64,000 nt of DNA from the NCBI GenBank assembly GCA_000004985.1, contig GG738890.1. One strand, written 5' to 3'. Every line of letters begins with the position of its first letter. Positions within the stretch are counted from its first letter, which is position 1. This document shows, piece by piece, positions 5,202-36,989 of the stretch. The notes under the pieces are model-generated. The model saw only the letters and a list, made by a program, of their open reading frames with translations. It was not told the origin of the DNA and made no database searches. The position numbers and the translations under genes were made by a program. This stretch comes from Naegleria gruberi. Taxonomy: Eukaryota.

Positions 5202-6878
5202 ATGTCCCAACAACCACAACTCCCATCATCCTACGAGGATAATAACATTGCTACTTCAACTTCTAATGATAAAGTTACGAATTTAGAATTGACTCATGAA
5301 AAGATTATCATTATTGATTTCGGATCACAATATACACAACTCATTGGTCGTAAAGTTCGTGAATTGAATGTTTATTGTGAGATTTATCCATACGATAAAT
5401 TCAATGAAAATACATTGAAGGTGAGTAGTGGTGGTGAGAATGCAGAACAAGATGGATGGTCATTTGTGAGAGGTGTTATTCTATCTGGATCTCATCATTC
5501 AGTTCATGATGAACATTCACCACGTGTCAATGAACAAGTTTGGAATGAAATTCATAAGAGACAAATTCCAATTCTTGGTATTTGTTTTGGTGCTCAAATG
5601 TTAGCTCACTTGTATGGAGAACAAGTTGTTTCAAGTGTTATTAGAGAATATGGACGTGCTCATATTCAATTGACCTCAAATAATGAAGATACAATTCTTA
5701 GTCAATTGAGTGGTGATTCACAAGTTTGGATGTCGCATGGTGATTCAATTCTTATTAAGGAAGAAGGTTCTCAATTGGAAATTATTGCAAAATCTGATAG
5801 TATTCCAGTTGCTGCTTTCAAAGTTAAGGGAAAGAAGATTTTTGGTGTTCAATTCCATCCAGAGGTTCATCACTCACATTGTGGAAAGTTGATTCTCTCC
5901 AATTTCTTGAAACTTGCTGGATGCTCTTGTACTTGGACTCCTTCTCATTTCATTGACGAAACTGTAAAGAATTTGAAACAAACTATTGGAGAAAGTGATC
6001 ACGTTGTTATGGCATTGAGTGGAGGTGTTGACAGTAGTGTTGCTGCCGTTCTCTTACAAAAGGCTATTGGAGACAGATTACATTGTATTTTTGTAGATAA
6101 TGGATTATTGAGATTGAATGAATTTGAACAAGTATTGGAAACTTATAGAGATAGTTTACATTTGAATGTTAAGGGAGTTGAAGTATCTACACTCTTCTAT
6201 GATGCATTGAAGGGAGAATCTGATCCAGAAAAGAAACGTAAAATTATTGGAGCCAAATTTATTGAAGTATTCGAAAAGGAAGCTCAACAAATTTCCAATG
6301 TCAAACACTTGGGTCAAGGAACTATTTATCCAGATGTTGTCGAGTCAATTGGTGGAGCAACTATCAAGAGTCACCACAATGTTGGTGGTCTTCCAGAAAA
6401 GATGCACATGAAAGTGGTTGAGCCATTGAGATTACTTTTCAAGGATGAAGTCAGAAGAGTTGGTAAGGAATTAGGAATTCCAGATAACATCTTACTTCGT
6501 CATCCATTCCCTGGTCCTGGACTTGGTATTAGAATTTTAGGCGATATCACTGCAGAGAAGGTTGAATTATTACAAAAGGTTGATGCCATCTATGTTAATT
6601 CATTGAAGGAAGAAGGATTGTATAATCAAATCTGGCAAGCTGGTGCTATCTTGTTGCCAATTCATTCGGTTGGTGTTCAAGGGGATGGCAGAACTTATGA
6701 GAAGGTTGTTGCTTTGAGAGCTGTTACTTCTGTTGATGGTATGACTGCAGATATTTTCCATTTCCCTTGGGAATTCCTTGGAAAGGTTTCGAATAAGATC
6801 ATTAATCAAGTTAAGGGTGTGAATAGAGTTGTCTATGATATTAGTACTAAACCACCTTCAACTATTGAATGGGAATAA
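5202..6878 (+). CDS. guaA: GMP synthase (glutamine-hydrolysing)
   Basis: 558 aa. Class-I glutamine amidotransferase motifs ('[13 protein letters not shown]', '[11 protein letters not shown]') are followed by the PP-loop '[15 protein letters not shown]' and a GMP-synthase C-terminal domain. ~35-aa N-terminal extension. aaaaaaATGtcc start. Confidence 0.9.
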
Positions 6879-9461: not shown

Positions 9462-10268
9462 TTAATTTTCATTAGCCATGACATAGGCAATAATGTCTCG
9501 GAGAGAAATAACTTTAACTGGATGGAGTTGCTTGTCACAAACATACATTCTGTGAATTCTGTTGGCAGCCAATCTTCCAATAACAAATCCTAGTTCAGTT
9601 TCTTCAGAGCATGAAATGGCTGGATGACTTTCATTATATGATTGTTCTCGAATATGTTGGACAAAGGTGTGAACTCCTTGATGGAGAGAATGATAAAGAT
9701 TAGATGGATTAATAGCCTTAATGTCTCTTGCTGATAAGTTTCCAATCAAAATTCCTGTAGCATCAACAACAGCCAAACCACTGACCTTCATTTGTTGCAT
9801 CTTTTTGAAACAATCAATAGTTCTATTGTGTTTTTCAAGAGTAATAACTGGAGAGACACCTAAATCAGCAGCACCAACTTTTTGATGAGCAATGTCACCC
9901 ATTTGTTTTTGATGAAGAGCAAGGAAATTGACAATTTGTGCTTGAGTCAAAATACTGACCATCTTTCCGTGGCTATCAATAACTGGACAACGGTGTGACT
10001 TTTCCTTGACCAACAAGGTACAAGCATCATAGAGTGATTTATCATCTCTAATTGGAGTGAATGGATTGTGAGCAAAGTCAGTAATACCTCCTATTTGTTG
10101 ATCTTGGAATTTAGAAGCAGTCTTCAATCTAGAGAAAATGTCATTACCTTGTCTTGTTTCAGCTTCTCCAAAAAGTTCAACCAAATAAGCCAAAATATCG
10201 AGAATATCAACCAAACCGATACATTCCTTTCCCTTCATGACTGGAGCAGAAACAATACCAGAAGACAT
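9462..10268 (-). CDS. CBS-domain pair protein
   Basis: 268 aa. Repeated CBS-like units ('GLVDILDILAYL', 'GLAVVDATGILIGNLSARDI', 'ISLRDIIAYV'). Real ATG at 10268. Confidence 0.55.
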   Translation of the reverse strand: MSSGIVSAPVMKGKECIGLVDILDILAYLVELFGEAETRQGNDIFSRLKTASKFQDQQIGGITDFAHNPFTPIRDDKSLYDACTLLVKEKSHRCPVIDSHGKMVSILTQAQIVNFLALHQKQMGDIAHQKVGAADLGVSPVITLEKHNRTIDCFKKMQQMKVSGLAVVDATGILIGNLSARDIKAINPSNLYHSLHQGVHTFVQHIREQSYNESHPAISCSEETELGFVIGRLAANRIHRMYVCDKQLHPVKVISLRDIIAYVMANEN

Positions 10269-11439
10269 TAATTTCTAATTTTTCAAAGAGTTTGAATATT
10301 ATCCGTTTTTTTGATATTAATTAAACAAATGATGAAGAGAGTGATAATAGAGCGTTGAAGATGTGCAATATTAATTCGAACAATTGTTGTTGCCAATATT
10401 AACGTTAAGATTAATTATTGTATTGTGTTGTTAATAATAAAAATCAATGTTTTTCCATCATCGTAGAAAATAAAATTCAAGTCATCACGGATCTTCCTAT
10501 AATACCTACCTCCAAAACATCATGTAATTTATCTTCGTATTGGAAAGTAATCAATTCTGTTGGCTTGGCGACTTCCTTGACCAATGTTTTTCTGAGCAAG
10601 CTAAATAATTCCTTCATTTTTTTTTAAAATCTTTAAAATATCGGTTAATAGGTAGATGCGACCCTTAAATGGACTATTTAAAAATATAAAAATGATATTA
10701 TTTAAATTCACAACGTTGACTTTTTGAGTTTTGTGTTGAAAGGATGGTGCATGAATATAATATATTCATATTTTTCATTACACAGCCAATCTGATTGTGA
10801 AATACACGAAAGAGTTGTTTCTGTTTTGTGAGTAGACAAGAAACATGTTCCAGTTTTTAAAGATTTGATTCAATAGAAGAAATATCTTTCAGAGAGATCC
10901 TTTGTACAATAGAGACTTTTTTATTGAAAACTACTAAACAATTTCTAATCTGATATTATTATACAATTGTGGTTTTGTGTTCTTGATATTAGGAGTGCTG
11001 TGGATTTACAATTCTGCAAATGCTATAAAGTGAGGGGAATAATTATCAGCCCTCTTGTGACTCTACTATTCTCAATAATAATTGAAATGAAAAAGTGCAA
11101 GAGGGCTCTCTGAGTCTATAATCATAATAGCTGAAGTATTCATTGCAGTAGGTTTCTTTTTTTTAATTGAACAAGAGACAATCATCACATTCAAGCCAGC
11201 TCTCTTTCTATTTATATTTTAGGAAATGCCTCTTTCAAATTTTGAAACAAACTCTTGTCTATTTGTATTTTTGGTAAATGTAACTTTCATATTTTGAAGC
11301 TGCTATCTAAATTTTTAATTTTCATGATCATGAGAGTTATATAATCAATAAATATTTATTGATCTTAATTGATTCGAGGATGAATCTGTACTGTTGCTTT
11401 TTACTGGCCCTAGTTCAGAAATCAGATGCAACAAGGGTT

Positions 11440-11475
11440 GAAGTGATTGATATTTCACAATTTAAGATAGTGAAT
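11440..11475 (+). promoter_or_regulatory. Conserved 36-nt block immediately upstream of 5S rRNA (copy 1)
   Basis: GAAGTGATTGATATTTCACAATTTAAGATAGTGAAT recurs with 4 mismatches at 24691..24726 directly upstream of the second 5S copy. It contains a TATA-like ATATTT about 25 nt upstream of the 5S start. Confidence 0.35.
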
Positions 11476-11593
11476 GGCTACGGCCATATCACGATGAATG
11501 CACCTCATCCCGTCCGATTTGAGAAGTTAAGCATCGTCGAGCCACATCAGTACTGAGGTTGGAGACAACTTGGGAACCTGTGGTGCTGTAGTC
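11476..11593 (+). rRNA. rrn5: 5S ribosomal RNA
   Basis: 118 nt beginning GGCTACGGCCATATCAC. Conserved 5S elements are present: the loop A/box A region, 'CCCGTCCGATTTGAGAAGTTAAGC', and '...GGGAACCTGTGGTGCTGTAGTC'. The 5' and 3' ends form the 9-bp helix I. A T5 run follows as a Pol III terminator. Identical second copy at 24727..24844. Confidence 0.85.
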
Positions 11594-11823
11594 TTTTTCA
11601 TTTTACCTTATGGATTATTTAATTATTTAGATATTGATCTGTATTAGGTTATAAATTCTACATTTGAAAAAAAGCAACATTCAATCCATGAAATCGTCCT
11701 TATAAACAGCCTTATGAAAGCCTTAGTGACAATTTCACTCTTGAGCTTTCGGTTTGTTTCAAGGTGGTTCTTATGTGAAATAACTTTTTCAAAATCCAAC
11801 ATAATGTTTCTATTATTTAACAG

Positions 11824-11998
11824 AGCGAGAAATCATACCAGATGAATCCTCACAGGAAAAAATTGAGAAGGAGGGCAACAACCACTTTGATTATTGACCA
11901 AATTCCATTGGCTAATCATCCTCTGAGTGCAAGGAGGAGAGTTTCCAGATTCACATTTCAGTCTGCATGATCTCTGAAATGTCCTTCAAGGTAAGTAT
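11824..11998 (-). ncRNA. U1: U1 spliceosomal snRNA
   Basis: The minus strand reads ATACTTACCTtgaagg..., the canonical U1 5' end complementary to 5' splice sites. A stem-loop II 'CCTTGCACTCAGAGGATG' (U1A-loop-like UUGCAC) follows. An Sm site AATTTTTTCC precedes a 3' stem-loop (GAGGATTCAT/ATGATTTCTC). The 3' end is approximate. Confidence 0.75.
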
Positions 11999-12284
11999 GA
12001 AGAAAGCAAAGAGTGTAAATTGGAACAAATCTTTTAAACCTTTCAATATGTTTGGTTTTTGAAAACTGAATTATGGTCGTTGTTTGTTGTTTTATGATTT
12101 GAGTTCTTTGATATTGTTGAACATGAAGCAAACACAGAATTGACATAATTACATTGAAAATTAAGTATGATGAGAATTTAACTAGAAGATAATAAAGAAT
12201 GGGTCAAAAAATTATTGAATATTTACATTTTCAGTTTATTTACAATGATTGCCTAGGTTTACAAAATTTTGAGTTTTATGGAGA

Positions 12285-12500
12285 CTACCACTTTTTGAAT
12301 TGTTTGTTTCTCATTTCTAAGGTGTTATGTGATTGAGATTTGAAAGTTTTGCTTGTTTCACTTCCAATAGAATTCAATGTTTTGTAATCAATTAAATTTC
12401 TTCTTCTTGTTCCACCAACAATATTATCCAGAGAAATTTCGGAATTAAATTGTGAAGTATTATTGGAGGAATTATACATATTTCTTCTTGTTGAGACCAT
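12285..12500 (-). CDS. Small basic S/N-rich hypothetical protein (paralog A)
   Basis: 71-aa ORF with A-rich ATG context. It shares the motif NIVGGTRRRNLIDY with the divergently oriented ORF 12728..13027. Confidence 0.3.
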   Translation of the reverse strand: MVSTRRNMYNSSNNTSQFNSEISLDNIVGGTRRRNLIDYKTLNSIGSETSKTFKSQSHNTLEMRNKQFKKW

Positions 12501-12727
12501 TTTCTAATTGTTATTTTGTTATTTTCTTTTGTTGTTGATTTTCATTAAATTTCCTTTCATCAAAATATTAATAGAAAAATTCAAATTCTTGTGATGAGTG
12601 GAAAATCCACCAAAAATTGGAATCACAAAATTAGTGGAAATCATCATGGAAATAAATAGATAATTGATCGGATGATGAAATTTCCACAACAAAACAAAAT
12701 AACAAAATAACAAAAACTAAGAGCAAA

Positions 12728-13027
12728 ATGCCAGCTAGAAATACCTCATCAAATACTTCTTCATCTTCCGAAGGTAGAATTCCAACAAAAACAGAATGGA
12801 CAAGATCTAAACCAATTGATTTATCTAAAAGATTACCATTATTTGATATTGATACTTCAAATATTATAAGTGGAACAAGACATCGTAATAATATTGATTA
12901 TCATCATGCAAATTTAAATGGTAAACAAATTTCAGTGAAAAGATCTTCGAAAAATTCAATTGAAAAGAGAGCTAAACAACAATCGAACACCACTAATAAG
13001 AAGATTACCAAATCGAAAAAGATGTAA
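12728..13027 (+). CDS. Small basic S/N/K-rich hypothetical protein (paralog B)
   Basis: 99-aa ORF with caaaATG context. It contains NIISGTRHRNNIDY, 11 of 13 identical to the motif in ORF 12285..12500. Confidence 0.3.
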   Translation: MPARNTSSNTSSSSEGRIPTKTEWTRSKPIDLSKRLPLFDIDTSNIISGTRHRNNIDYHHANLNGKQISVKRSSKNSIEKRAKQQSNTTNKKITKSKKM

Positions 13028-13379: not shown

Positions 13380-13870
13380 CTAGAAACCGACCTATTGCCC
13401 ACTCACCCAAGAAAATCGTGATTTGAAAGGTTCCTTCATTTTTATTTAATAAGTGAAATGGCCTAATTGACTAAACTTGAAATTAATCAGAATTTTCTTT
13501 GTGATCATGGTGAACTGAATTGAAACAACTGACTCATCTCTGCATTTCTAATAATAATATTAGCGAAACTGGTGCAAAATATGTTGCTGAATTGAAATAA
13601 GTAATTCATTCTTGTTGAACTGAACAAGTTGACCAATCTCAGTATTTGCAACAATAACATTAGTTCCAAGGGAGGTAAATTTATTAATGAGATGAGTCAA
13701 TTATTTTGATATTAGTAGAAATGGTGTTGAATTTCTCAATTTTAATGAACTAGAACAATTGGAGCACCTTAACATTTCTTGGAATTATATTGGTGATGAA
13801 GGCATTTGCTATAAGCAAAATGAAACATTTACTTTTTCTCGGTGTAAGGGTACCTCTATTCTCTTTCGAA
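13380..13870 (+). pseudogene. Decayed RNI-type leucine-rich-repeat gene fragment
   Basis: Translating the plus strand gives LRR units interrupted by stops and frameshifts: 'LTHLCISNNNISETGAKYVAELK*', 'NKLTNLSICNNNISSKGGKFINEMSQLF*', 'EHLNISWNYIGDEGICY'. These match the repeat consensus of the intact LRR gene at 49795..51012 (LTNLDISNNYIGETGVEYVSEM). Confidence 0.45.
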
Positions 13871-13941: not shown

Positions 13942-14015
13942 TACAGCGAGCGGGGCTTGAACCCGCGACCTTAAGCGTGTTAGGCTTACGATCTAACCAA
14001 CTGATCTATCGCTGC
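13942..14015 (-). tRNA. tRNA-Val (anticodon AAC)
   Basis: Minus strand GCAGCGA-TA-GATC-AGTTGGTTA-GATC-G-TAAGC-CTAACAC-GCTTA-AGGTC-GCGGG-TTCAAGC-CCCGC-TCGCTGT-A folds as a cloverleaf. The acceptor has a G1-U72 wobble. T-loop TTCAAGC. T-run downstream. Confidence 0.85.
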
Positions 14016-17759: not shown

Positions 17760-18034
17760 TTTTTTAGTGTTGGTTGAGAGATTTGTTATTATTAGAAGAA
17801 GAATTTATATTCTTCTGTTGTGTGGATTAAAATGGTGAGAAGGTTAATTTGAGAGATTCTAATCTTGTTCCATTTTTTTTAATATTTAATTTTATTAAAT
17901 ATTATTTATAAGATTAAAAATGGAAGGATAAACCAAAATGTCTTCATAAGTCTCTTAAAAATACAAGATTCAAGAGGTTTTAGTGGGATTAATGTATTTT
18001 ATGAATTTTAAAGTGGAAGATAGATTAATGTGTC

Positions 18035-18160
18035 GGGGTCTTGGCGCAGTCGGTATTATTAATAGATTTTAGGGTAGGTAACGCTCTCAATCTACCTCAA
18101 CGTCGGTAGCGCGTAGGTCTCATAATCCTAAGGTCGTGAGTTCGATCCTCACAGACCCCA
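18035..18160 (+). tRNA. tRNA-Met(CAU) copy interrupted by a 53-nt insertion in the D-loop
   Basis: Identical to the intact 73-nt tRNA-Met at 36917..36989 and 25622..25694 (minus), except for an insertion at 18055..18107. The insertion is ATTATTAATAGATTTTAGGGTAGGTAACGCTCTCAATCTACCTCAAC plus GTCGGT, which duplicates the 6 nt preceding it. CTTTTG follows the 3' end. Confidence 0.6.
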
Positions 18161-18320
18161 ACTTTTGCCCTTTCTTTTGCTTATTTTGCATCCTATCGAA
18201 CGATCATCACCATAGTTTGATCACCAATATCTTTACAAGCAAAGGGAGCAATTTCTAGCTGGTTTGTTTTGCTTGTGGTTAACGTTGATATTACAGTTGA
18301 GTAACAAACATAAAATAAAA

Positions 18321-24441: not shown

Positions 24442-24690
24442 TTTGTTATTTGTTAATAGTATATAATACAGTTAAGTTGTTTTTTTGTGATTGAAAATGC
24501 ATAATCGTTAGTGTGCCATTTATGGTGGATTCTGTACCGAAACCAAAGCGCTGCCGTGAGCACTAATTATTGATCTGTGGAATTTGCGCAAGAAATGGTT
24601 GCCATTTCATCCTCTTGGAAACTTCACAATCTGTCATTAAGAGAATGATTTTATGTATTTCAAAGCATTGCAATTTCAGAAATTTCAGGT

Positions 24691-24726
24691 GAAGTGATTA
24701 ATATTTCACAATTTAAGAAAGAGAAT
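24691..24726 (+). promoter_or_regulatory. Conserved 36-nt block immediately upstream of 5S rRNA (copy 2)
   Basis: GAAGTGATTAATATTTCACAATTTAAGAAAGAGAAT. See copy 1 at 11440..11475. Confidence 0.35.
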
Positions 24727-24844
24727 GGCTACGGCCATATCACGATGAATGCACCTCATCCCGTCCGATTTGAGAAGTTAAGCATCGTCGAGCCACATCA
24801 GTACTGAGGTTGGAGACAACTTGGGAACCTGTGGTGCTGTAGTC
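24727..24844 (+). rRNA. rrn5: 5S ribosomal RNA (second copy)
   Basis: 118 nt identical to 11476..11593. Followed by TTTT. Confidence 0.85.
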
Positions 24845-25087
24845 TTTTACTTATCAATATTGCTTATTGGTCAATCGTCCAGTTGCTTCTCTCATTCTTT
24901 CCATTATTCCAAACAAAGTGTTAACCACTGATAAAACTGCTCCATCATCAATAATGATCAATTAAGATTTGCTACATGTTCAAAATAAATGACATTATTA
25001 TTTATTAAAATACCACAAACATTTTGCCATTCTTCACTCTAGAACAAACAGAATAAAAACAATGTTCCTTATGCAATTCTGAAAACC

Positions 25088-25275
25088 ATCTTTCTCGGCC
25101 AATTGGCTTTGATCGAGTGTAGTATCTGTTCTTTTCAGTTTAATAGCTGAAAGCAGCCCACGGGTTGCATTACTATTAACTCAATTTTTTGTAGGGATCA
25201 GGGTTTGAGCTTGATTGCTCACTTTGATTGGTTTCAATCAGACATTGCACAAACCGTCAGATTAGGAGCCACCCA
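25088..25275 (+). ncRNA. U2: U2 spliceosomal snRNA
   Basis: ATCTTTCTCGGCCAATTGGCTTTGATCGAGTGTAGTATCTGTTCTTTTCAGTTTAATAGCTGA... matches the conserved U2 5' region, including the branch-point-interacting GUAGUA. Sm site AATTTTTTG. 3' stem-loops end ...GGAGCCACCC. Length ~187 nt. Confidence 0.85.
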
Positions 25276-25621
25276 ACTCTTTTAATTAATTGAAAAATCA
25301 TTGAACAAAGACAATCTCAATCAGAGTAAAATTGAGCTTTTTACAAATTCCGAGCATGTATGATGACGAAGATATAGTAAGCATGCTGAGGGACTCAAAA
25401 CAGTCATTGATTGGTGTTGATATTGAACAATTTCTTGTCGACATTTGAATGCAGTTGGCAAGTGCGAAAAGGAAAATGAGAAGTGGAACGATTTCAAGAA
25501 TGAATTATTTGATTAATTGAAAGTAGAAACAATTAGGAAATTGATGTTGTTTTTTGTTCTCCTTCATAACATAACTATTGGGATTAGCAACACTTAAAAG
25601 CTATTGAGAGGATGCAAAAGT

Positions 25622-25694
25622 TGGGGTCTGTGAGGATCGAACTCACGACCTTAGGATTATGAGACCTACGCGCTACCGACTGCGCCAAGACCCC
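25622..25694 (-). tRNA. tRNA-Met (CAU), elongator-type
   Basis: GGGGTCT-TG-GCGC-AGTCGGTA-GCGC-G-TAGGT-CTCATAA-TCCTA-AGGTC-GTGAG-TTCGATC-CTCAC-AGACCCC-A. Anticodon CAT. T-loop TTCGATC. No initiator-specific A1-U72, A54 or A60. Confidence 0.85.
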
Positions 25695-25797
25695 GACACA
25701 TTATAAACCTTTTACAGTTTCTTCATTAACCTTAACTGAGTTCCTAGGTTTACCTAATAGGAACAGTTTTCTTTTGTTCATATTCAATTCGAAAAAA

Positions 25798-26943
25798 ATG
25801 TTACAACAAACAGAAGAAACAATTGATGAAAAATTAAGATCAAATACAACAACAAATTGGAAAGACATTCCACTGGAAGTGTGGACTCATCACATTTGGT
25901 CGTTTCTTCACCTTCCAGAACTTTTTTCCATTCGTCTAGTTTCTCACGAATGGAACGATTTTTTATTGCATCACGCAAGAGATTATTTGCTTCACGTTAA
26001 ATTAAATCGGATTCATATGCCTTCTTTTTTAATTTGTTGCAAACATTTGTATTTTAATAATATTGGAAAATTGGATATGAAATTTATAGAGTACGCTCTT
26101 GAGCCGAAACATCAAAAACCACTTGACGAAACTGAAAGAAAGGAAATTGCAGAAAGTTTTAATCCCTTAGAATATTTTCCAAATCTTTCCAGTTTGAAAC
26201 TAACTCTTACTGATGTGAAATCATTGGAAACTGTTTCTCCCCAAATTGCAAATATGAAATATCTCAATGATTTGGATATTAGATCAAATTTAATGACAAA
26301 CAAGTGTTTGAATACAATTCTAACACAACCTGTAACTTTAATGAGTTTAACTAGATTGGATGTTTCTGTGAATGTGTTGGGAACATCTTGTGTCGAATTT
26401 ATCAATTCAAATCCTCATCTCTCCAATCTGAAATATCTTAATATGAGTAATAATCAGTTGCTTTTATTCCATACTAAGGTTGAGAGTGTATTCAAAGACA
26501 CTTTGGAAGAGCTCTATGTCTCTGATTGCTCCCTCAATATAGAATCTATGAAGAATATTTTGGTGAGCTATCCAAAGTTGACTACATTGGATTTTAGTTT
26601 CAACAAGCTTGAAAAAATCAAAAATTTATATCAATCTATTCAATTAGAAAACGATACAGAAAAATACTGCAAACTTATTCGATTAAACATGTCAGGATCC
26701 AAATTAAGAAATGATCAATTGGAATATATTGCCAAGATTCCAATCTTTTCAGAATTGAGAATTCTAGATTTGAGTAGAAACAGAATCAACAAATTAGGAA
26801 CTGAAAAACTAGCTGACGAATCAATTAGTGTCTTGTCCAAAGTTGAATATCTGGATTTGAGTCGTTGTGGAATTGGAAAAGAAGGTGCACAAAATATTCG
26901 ACAAAGTTCAATATTTTCCTCTCTAAAATTATTAATTGAATAA
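25798..26943 (+). CDS. F-box/LRR protein (RNI-type leucine-rich repeats)
   Basis: F-box 'IPLEVWTHHIWSFLHLPELFSIRLVSHEWNDFL' followed by LRRs ('LTRLDVSVNVLGTSCVEFI', 'LRILDLSRNRINKLGTEKL', 'LDLSRCGIGKEGAQNI'). The ORF-track start at 25774 is a TTG. The ATG at 25798 has aaaaaaATG context. Confidence 0.6.
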   Translation: MLQQTEETIDEKLRSNTTTNWKDIPLEVWTHHIWSFLHLPELFSIRLVSHEWNDFLLHHARDYLLHVKLNRIHMPSFLICCKHLYFNNIGKLDMKFIEYALEPKHQKPLDETERKEIAESFNPLEYFPNLSSLKLTLTDVKSLETVSPQIANMKYLNDLDIRSNLMTNKCLNTILTQPVTLMSLTRLDVSVNVLGTSCVEFINSNPHLSNLKYLNMSNNQLLLFHTKVESVFKDTLEELYVSDCSLNIESMKNILVSYPKLTTLDFSFNKLEKIKNLYQSIQLENDTEKYCKLIRLNMSGSKLRNDQLEYIAKIPIFSELRILDLSRNRINKLGTEKLADESISVLSKVEYLDLSRCGIGKEGAQNIRQSSIFSSLKLLIE

Positions 26944-36916: not shown

Positions 36917-36989
36917 GGGGTCTTGGCGCAGTCGGTAGCGCGTAGGTCTCATAATCCTAAGGTCGTGAGTTCGATCCTCACAGACCCCA
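36917..36989 (+). tRNA. tRNA-Met (CAU), elongator-type
   Basis: Sequence identical to 25622..25694. Shares a 52-nt upstream block with the interrupted copy at 18035. CTTTTG terminator. Confidence 0.85.

Follow-up and report, generated by a model that had tools for sequence, protein, structure and literature searches.

In the Naegleria gruberi genome (assembly GCA_000004985.1) we analysed a stretch of 64,000 nucleotides of contig GG738890.1, which as a whole is called the window here. On its minus strand, between positions 11825 and 11998, lies the coding region of a U1 small nuclear RNA (snRNA), about 174 nt long, which was recognised by two covariance models and by its motifs. Its ends are predicted: the 5' end was set at the A of AUACUUACCU and the 3' end at the last pair of stem-loop 4 (SL4). 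The identification rests on homology to U1, on the presence of every motif and on compatibility with the canonical fold. On these grounds we consider, with a probability of about 0.9, that the locus is a genuine and probably functional U1 gene of N. gruberi.

All 4227 Rfam families were searched on both strands, and the matches were judged by E-value. The U1 family, RF00003 (gathering score 69.5 bits), aligned to positions 11826-11998 of the minus strand over the entire model (positions 1-166 of 166) with 45.5 bits, which corresponds to E = 2.3e-10 for a 451-nt stretch and to 3.3e-8 for the whole window. Among the sub-threshold Rfam matches in the window, this was the sole one with E ≤ 0.05. 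Scaled to the N. gruberi genome, about 41 Mb in size, the E-value would still be near 2e-5. In support of this result, a second model (R1) was built from four complete canonical U1 RNAs of animal and plant type (L004, L006, L013 and L014), leaving Naegleria out; the sequences came from public contigs and were found by loop-anchored pattern scans. R1 matched the U1 interval and nothing else in the window, again at full length (positions 1-164 of 164 against 11826-11998 of the minus strand), with 34.8 bits and an E-value, roughly calibrated, of ~9e-9. Since RF00003 and the independent R1 agree at full length, the U1 interval is well supported.

The motifs of a U1 RNA are all present and follow one another in the canonical order. 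The initial annotation had placed a U1 gene on the minus strand because the GTAAGT of the plus strand at 11991-11996 is the complement of the U1 5' end, and this reading held: ATACTTACCT, at 11998-11989 of the minus strand, is the only copy in the 64 kb. In the RNA it gives the 5' end AUACUUACCU (11989-11998), identical to model consensus positions 1-10, which serves 5' splice-site recognition; with a mean probability of being unpaired of 0.93, it is a single-stranded 5' end of the ACUUACCU type, complementary to the 5' splice site. On the minus strand ATACTTACCT is followed by a hairpin loop with GATCATGCAG, a hairpin loop with CTTGCACTCA, then AATTTTTTCC and, down to 11825, a terminal hairpin. 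The U1A-type loop, the Sm site and the terminal hairpin, which had also been proposed, were thus located at 11933-11924, 11864-11855 and 11853-11825.

Loop I, GAUCAUGCAG (11972-11963), is a 10-nt, U1-70K-type loop carried on the 9-bp stem of stem-loop 1 (SL1); it belongs to the GAUCAnGnAG type, and the same variant occurs in the canonical U1 RNAs L003-L006 and L013. Loop II, CUUGCACUCA (11933-11924; CTTGCACTC in DNA), is a 10-nt, U1A-type loop closed by UCCUC/GAGGA, and its CUUGCAC, a form of (A/C)UUGCAC, is also found in the algal-type U1 RNAs L003 and L005. In other eukaryotes the loops of stem-loops 1 and 2 bind U1-70K and U1A-type proteins. The Sm-binding site AAUUUUUUCC (AATTTTTTCC in DNA; 11855-11864) is single-stranded, lies between helix H and SL4 and was aligned to the Sm site by both models. 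Together with the terminal SL4 it conforms to the RAU3-6GR arrangement, with the deviation that no G follows the U run. Note that the surrounding 11-nt context, CUCAAUUUUUU, is identical in U1 (11867-11857, minus strand) and in the U2 snRNA gene of the same window (25180-25190, plus strand), and that the next two bases are CC in U1 but GU in U2. Because the unusual context is identical in the U2 of the same genome, it points to a lineage trait rather than to decay.

The canonical secondary structure could be traced through the whole RNA. Helix H, whose 5' strand GAAGG (11983-11987) pairs with CCUUC (11871-11867), closes a four-way junction and is present both in the minimum free energy (MFE) fold and in the constrained fold. 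It encloses SL1 (11953-11982; 9-bp stem, RNA positions 17-25 with 38-46), stem-loop 2 (SL2; 11900-11952; apical stem UCCUC/GAGGA) and stem-loop 3 (SL3; 11872-11899), an A/U-rich hairpin whose 9 bp (RNA 103-111 with 115-123) are continued by pairs of G100 and G101 with C125 and C126. SL4 (11825-11853) is a 3'-terminal hairpin of 7 + 4 bp. In the R1 alignment, 36 of the 43 structure pairs (83.7%) form in Naegleria, compared with 16-20 of 43 (37-47%) when the 3' partners were slid by 1-3 columns, although a model-fitted alignment makes such counts lean towards structure. By helix, the pairs formed are 4/4 in H, 9/10 in SL1, 8/12 in SL2, 8/9 in SL3 and 7/8, four of them compensatory, in SL4. Fourteen Naegleria pairs are standard yet differ on both sides from all four reference U1 RNAs; over the alignment of R1 plus Naegleria as a whole, 94.8% of the cells pair and 30 pairs have changes on both sides.

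SL3 is the most divergent part of the molecule, and RF00003 left it unaligned as a 21-nt insertion. R1, in turn, placed the hairpin of RNA positions 100-127 on SL3, with 8 of 9 pairs formed and 5 of them changed on both sides with respect to the four references. This hairpin is also the most stable local helix, with a probability of 0.85. The junction of H enclosing SL1, SL2 and SL3 was recovered with R1, while the Rfam alignment lacks SL3 and the ensemble is split. With loops I and II, the Sm site and the 5' end kept unpaired, the four-way junction plus SL4 folded at -44.2 kcal/mol, only 0.8 above the MFE structure at -45.0 kcal/mol. Energies alone would not be enough to pick out the canonical fold, and we propose the base of SL2 and the exact junction as a tentative placement in the modelled structure.

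The U1 5' end also fits the introns available for comparison. Alignment of the N. fowleri orthologue (309 aa) of a CBS-domain gene to the window revealed an extra 5' exon at approximately 10617-10510 (minus strand), starting MKELFSLL..., and with it an intron at 10509-10275 (minus strand), 1.5 kb from U1. This GT-AG intron is 235 nt long and has the donor GAG/GUAGGU (the slash marks the exon end; 10509-10504), with which U1 positions 3-10 form 8 of 8 pairs, one of them G-U. Willaertia intron donors read AAG/GUAAGU and CAG/GUAAGU. As a separate observation, the 268-aa CBS-domain protein annotated in N. gruberi appears to be without its 5' exon. A U1-70K partner protein exists in N. gruberi, since it is listed in a published U1-70K phylogeny (PMC8211703).

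Put together, the U1 RNA of ~174 nt would present its single-stranded 5' end, AUACUUACCU, for pairing with GU(A/R)GU 5' splice sites, and stem-loops 1 and 2 would offer their loops to U1-70K and U1A-type proteins. The four-way junction of helix H with SL1-3 would organise the body of the RNA, and the U-rich Sm site, followed by SL4, would nucleate the Sm ring. Transcription is probably carried out by RNA polymerase II (pol II) from the gene's own upstream region. We favour pol II over RNA polymerase III (pol III) because the internal T6 run would terminate the latter and there is no adjacent tRNA-type promoter.

The flanks of the U1 gene resemble those of the U2 snRNA gene, which lies 13 kb away at 25086-25276 on the plus strand (Rfam, 120 bits). 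The distal upstream 16-mer TTTGCTTCATGTTCAA (12117-12132, minus strand; -134 to -119 of U1), a candidate promoter or enhancer element, has a counterpart in U2, TTTGCTACATGTTCAA (24968-24983; -120 to -105), that is identical at 15 of 16 positions. The pattern TTTGCT(T/A)CATGTTCAA is thus shared at -134 of U1 and -120 of U2, and TTTGCTNCATGTTCAA has two exact matches in the window, which are precisely these two upstream sites. Among 1492 segment pairs drawn at random, 6 did as well (15/16; empirical p ~0.004). When the 180-nt upstream regions of both genes were aligned allowing gaps, they were collinear with a score of 39.8 (null 23.9 +/- 4.6), a value reached by 3 of 1964 random pairs (p ~0.002). 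Distal and proximal elements are 76 nt apart in U1, and the corresponding distance in U2 is 75 nt.

The proximal elements, ACCAAACATATTGAAA (-58 to -43) and TGTTCC (-29 to -24), at 12022-12056 on the minus strand, are the candidates on which the initial annotation had based its suggestion of a shared snRNA promoter motif. They are indeed there and form part of the collinear alignment, but the motifs ACCAAACATATTGAAA / AACAAACAGAATAAAA plus TGTTCC are not significant alone, as 20 of 100 shuffles give at least 2 matches; the idea gains instead from the 16-mer and from the collinear similarity, observed in two genes. Directly past the coding region of U1, a 3'-flank box, CTCTGTTAAATAATAGAAAC (11806-11825, minus strand), is a candidate signal for 3'-end formation. 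Its U2 counterpart, CTCTTTTAATTAATTGAAAA (25277-25296), is identical at 16 of 20 positions and in register, both boxes following the pattern CTCT(G/T)TTAA(A/T)TAAT(A/T)GAAA(C/A) and beginning 1 nt past the end of the Rfam alignment. In a test chosen post hoc, 2 of 19,925 random segment pairs (with +/-3 nt slop) equalled this likeness. From these shared upstream and 3' elements we infer candidates for the snRNA promoter and 3'-end signals of this lineage.

Several observations weigh against the identification of a functional U1 gene. At 45.5 bits the Rfam match is 24 bits short of the 69.5-bit gathering score, a default scan at gathering thresholds leaves U1 unreported, and the initial annotation had named a sub-threshold Infernal score as grounds for rejection. 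Taken to the letter this is what was found, but the shortfall is not decisive given a full-length match at E = 3e-8, the gathering score being a curated annotation cutoff and no biological property. The folding energy is no better than that of shuffled sequences (z = -1.04), the ensemble gives most helices a probability of 0.2-0.35, and its centroid differs from the canonical fold; besides the bias of the pair counts mentioned above, the basal part of SL2 is irregular and pairs poorly (8/12), and the G normally found on the 3' side of the Sm site is missing. As for the flanks, the promoter and 3'-box support comes from two genes with tests partly chosen post hoc, and the distance between the proximal box and +1 is 13 nt greater in U1 than in U2, which weakens a role for the box in setting the start site.

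The searches for orthologues count on the same side. No heterolobosean U1 was obtained from the 20-kb neighbourhoods of GMP synthase genes in Willaertia magna, N. fowleri and N. lovaniensis, nor from the CBS-domain neighbourhoods of N. fowleri, W. magna and Acrasis kona; in these ~128 kb, Rfam scans with permissive settings detected one tRNA and nothing else. Note that around the GMP synthase and CBS genes, N. fowleri, N. lovaniensis, Willaertia and Acrasis do not share the gene order of N. gruberi. Metagenome, prokaryote-genome and viral contigs, searched with loop-anchored patterns, gave no heterolobosean U1 either; they yielded canonical U1 RNAs of animals, plants and algae and two likely chance matches (L015 and L016). 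An exact look-up of the spurious open reading frames (ORFs) overlapping U1, aimed at further copies, recorded nothing.

These scans also uncovered animal-type U1 genes in contigs filed as bacterial metagenome-assembled genomes (MAGs), namely L013/L017 (CBDHDT010000127.1, 'MAG: Ekhidna sp.') and L014 ('MAG: Gammaproteobacteria bacterium'). One MAG-filed contig carries a tandem U1 array of at least 7 copies with a period of ~2.14 kb. The animal-type U1 in these prokaryotic bins is eukaryotic contamination.

The alternative that survives best places the working U1 elsewhere in the genome and takes the present locus for a pseudogene derived from U1, or for a copy that is silent or variant. The sub-threshold score, the Sm site without its 3' G and the irregular SL2 and SL3 would all fit a damaged copy; furthermore, the search for copies covered the 64-kb window, and a nearby leucine-rich repeat (LRR) pseudogene indicates that the region tolerates decay. 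Decay, however, should not leave every functionally constrained single-stranded motif intact, nor keep the helices through compensatory changes as is the case here, and the odd Sm context is common to U2. There is neither an A-tail nor a target duplication, and both the upstream and the 3' flank are similar to those of the high-scoring U2 gene. This disfavours a retro-pseudogene, since a retro-copy would not carry U2-like flanks. In addition, an Infernal search of the whole genome for N. gruberi U1, published in 2008, apparently turned up no better candidate (PMC2396436). We therefore consider a pseudogene or silent copy unlikely.

Another Sm-class RNA, either the U11 of the minor spliceosome or an RNA of the spliced-leader (SL RNA) type, is a very improbable explanation. 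It draws on the position of Naegleria in Discoba, together with the SL RNAs and highly reduced U1 RNAs of Euglenozoa (PMC2784804), and on the sub-threshold U1 score. Yet the remaining Rfam families reach E-values no better than ~0.8 at the interval, all of them short, chance-level matches to small nucleolar or long non-coding RNAs. Moreover, the 5' end has the exact U1 sequence and not that of U11 or the SL type, loops I and II carry U1-specific protein-binding sequences, and both U1 models align at full length. Finally, chance resemblance in AT-rich intergenic DNA that holds no RNA gene might be argued from the unexceptional folding energy and from the occurrence of the 10-mer ATACTTACCT alone in 10 of 100 window shuffles, but the covariance-model statistics (E = 3.3e-8 and ~9e-9 from two models) effectively refute it, as do five separate motifs in correct order and spacing and the 83.7% of independent model pairs that form against ~40% in the slid controls.

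The U1 gene is embedded in gene-dense DNA of ~33% GC. The window is N. gruberi nuclear DNA, since two of its ORFs are 100% identical to N. gruberi proteins: a GMP synthase of 558 aa (5202-6878, plus strand; identical to an NCBI Naegleria gruberi protein) and the 268-aa CBS-domain ORF at 9462-10268 (minus strand). Outside Heterolobosea, the best matches of the Naegleria GMP synthase are Bacteroidota proteins, with ~60-62% identity over 94% of the length; by its sequence this hints at a bacterial-type enzyme, possibly laterally acquired.

The initial annotation had described a 5S-U1-tRNA-Val cluster with an LRR pseudogene in a gene-poor stretch of ~3.5 kb, and most of this description stands. 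A 5S rRNA gene (11476-11594, plus strand; RF00001, 105.4 bits) is convergent with U1, with its T-run terminator ~230 nt from the U1 3' end, and the tRNA-Val(AAC) gene (13942-14015, minus strand; ARAGORN and Rfam) marks the far end of the cluster. The LRR gene at 13514-13812 (plus strand) is decayed, its three RNI-type units lying in three different frames; the stitched translation scores 34.7 bits against Pfam LRR_6 (cutoff 23.4). No significant similarity was found between this remnant and the intact LRR gene (25774-26943) beside U2. The gene-poor description applies only in part, since the stretch also holds two small ORFs with a CHZ histone-chaperone motif and exon 1 of the CBS gene reaches ~10617. 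The CHZ-motif ORFs (Pfam PF09649, cutoff 23.3 bits), of 71 aa (12285-12500, minus strand; 21.1 bits) and 99 aa (12728-13027, plus strand; 28.5 bits), lie between U1 and the LRR pseudogene and are head-to-head paralogues, 45% identical (E 7e-9). They are accompanied by an inverted repeat (12508-12538 / 12683-12713).

A second island, 5S-U2-tRNA-Met, is found 13 kb from the 5S-U1-tRNA-Val island. Here the 5S gene (24727-24845) is co-oriented with U2 on the plus strand and lies ~240 nt upstream of it, and a tRNA-Met on the minus strand follows ~350 nt past U2. The two 5S copies, 13.25 kb apart, are the only ones in the window. Their loci (11439-11597 and 24690-24848) have 159 nt in common at 98% identity, the gene plus 37 nt upstream, and nothing beyond. 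A recent segmental duplication of the two islands was rejected, as the 5S plus 37 nt is all they have in common and the LRR remnant shows no significant similarity to the LRR gene beside U2. Nor do the loci form a tandem 5S-snRNA repeat unit, the window containing two 5S copies and a single U1 copy. About 279 5S genes have been reported for N. gruberi (PMC3369914). Within the window, both 5S genes (2/2) lie less than 250 nt from an snRNA gene, a linkage that is unlikely to be random, and the adjacency in both islands suggests a non-random association and not a duplicated block.

A third tRNA-Met(CAT) copy, at 18033-18161 on the plus strand, is interrupted in its D-loop by 46 nt that are bordered by TCGGTA as a direct repeat. 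In both exon parts it matches the intact copies at 25622-25694 (minus strand) and 36917-36989 (plus strand) with 100% identity, and neither ARAGORN nor Rfam called this locus. Either a recent insertion that duplicated its target site or a non-canonically placed intron could account for the insert, and a simple fold favoured neither.

A U1 gene is an expected housekeeping gene in an intron-containing eukaryote and the present one is a member of a known family. Being a universal component of the spliceosome, its value here is for annotation and evolution. In our literature search for Naegleria U1, snRNA or snRNP, and for the sequence itself, we found no description, and an existing database annotation is possible. 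In Davila Lopez et al. 2008, the list of genomes on which Infernal was run unfiltered includes 'Naegleria gruberi (U1)', and the RNAs of G. sulphuraria and A. locustae were the only ones obtained in this way (PMC2396436). N. gruberi U1 thus appears to have been missed by the 2008 screen.

Several uses follow from the gene. It shows that standard Rfam thresholds can miss a divergent U1, and it provides a seed sequence for U1 in N. fowleri and other Heterolobosea. It also shows a free-living heterolobosean that has retained all four stems of U1, whereas its kinetoplastid relatives have a reduced U1. The flank elements shared by U1 and U2, together with the repeated 5S-snRNA adjacency, offer starting points for studying the transcription and genomic arrangement of small-RNA genes in Discoba.

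Compared with the canonical U1 of animals, plants and green algae (RF00003), the Naegleria RNA has the same 5' end AUACUUACCU, the same order of H, SL1, SL2, SL3, Sm site and SL4, the same loop I GAUCAUGCAG (as in L004, L006 and L013) and the same loop II CUUGCAC (as in L003 and L005). It differs in being ~174 instead of ~164 nt long and in its A/U-rich helices, which are unrelated in sequence and have 40% GC against 50-60%. The SL3 region is ~10 nt longer and could not be aligned by the Rfam model, the base of SL2 is irregular, and the Sm site AAUUUUUUCC is without the G. Within Discoba, trypanosomatid U1 is strongly reduced, to little more than stem-loop 1, whereas Euglena U1 keeps the complete multi-stem architecture. 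Set against them by description, the Naegleria U1 is full multi-stem like that of Euglena and not reduced like that of trypanosomatids. A full-size U1 of Euglena gracilis is attributed to Breckenridge et al. 1999, as cited in PMC2784804, and variation of the Trypanosoma U1 is mentioned in PMC2396436.

Mixed clusters of small-RNA genes have been described in the related Euglenozoa, in a 2.7-kb region of Leishmania tarentolae, with U3, 10 tRNAs, U1 and 5S, and in the SL RNA-5S repeats of Euglena (PMC2784804). As in those clusters, the Naegleria islands have, twice in the window, a 5S gene at ≤ ~240 nt from an snRNA gene and a tRNA nearby; in contrast to them, the Naegleria loci are not tandem, and 5S is convergent with U1 and co-oriented with U2. 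Linkages of 5S to U1 and to U2 are also known from crustaceans and fishes. In trypanosomatids, snRNA genes depend on pol III, have no internal terminator and receive their A and B boxes from a divergent tRNA gene ~100 nt upstream. The Naegleria gene does not belong to this tRNA-dependent type: the nearest tRNA (Val) lies 1.9 kb upstream of U1 on the same strand, and the Sm site contains a T6 run. Position and orientation likewise ruled out the 5S and tRNA genes as upstream promoters of U1 in the trypanosomatid manner.

The flanks of the Naegleria genes can also be set beside those of known pol II snRNA genes. These have a distal and a proximal sequence element (DSE and PSE) and a 3' box in vertebrates, and an upstream sequence element (USE) and TATA box in plants; a plant-type USE and TATA were visible upstream of the reference U1 L006. 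The layout in Naegleria U1 and U2, with a distal element, a proximal element and a 3' box, is analogous, but the sequences of the candidate elements are unrelated to the PSE, USE and metazoan 3' box consensus, and the candidate box abuts the coding region whereas the metazoan 3' box lies 9-19 nt downstream. It is conceivable, if still rather doubtful, that pol II snRNA control in Naegleria is lineage-specific and unlike PSE/DSE or USE/TATA. It would comprise a distal TTTGCTNCATGTTCAA, then, 75-76 nt downstream, an A/C-rich box, a TGTTCC at about -25 and, abutting the 3' end, a CTCTNTTAANTAATNGAAA / CTCTNTTAANTAATNG box. The genes might also be systematically coupled to 5S at ~230-240 nt, with pol III and pol II genes sharing obligate islands. 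Such an arrangement, if true, would correspond, in a free-living discoban, to the coupling of snRNA genes with tRNA genes in trypanosomatids.

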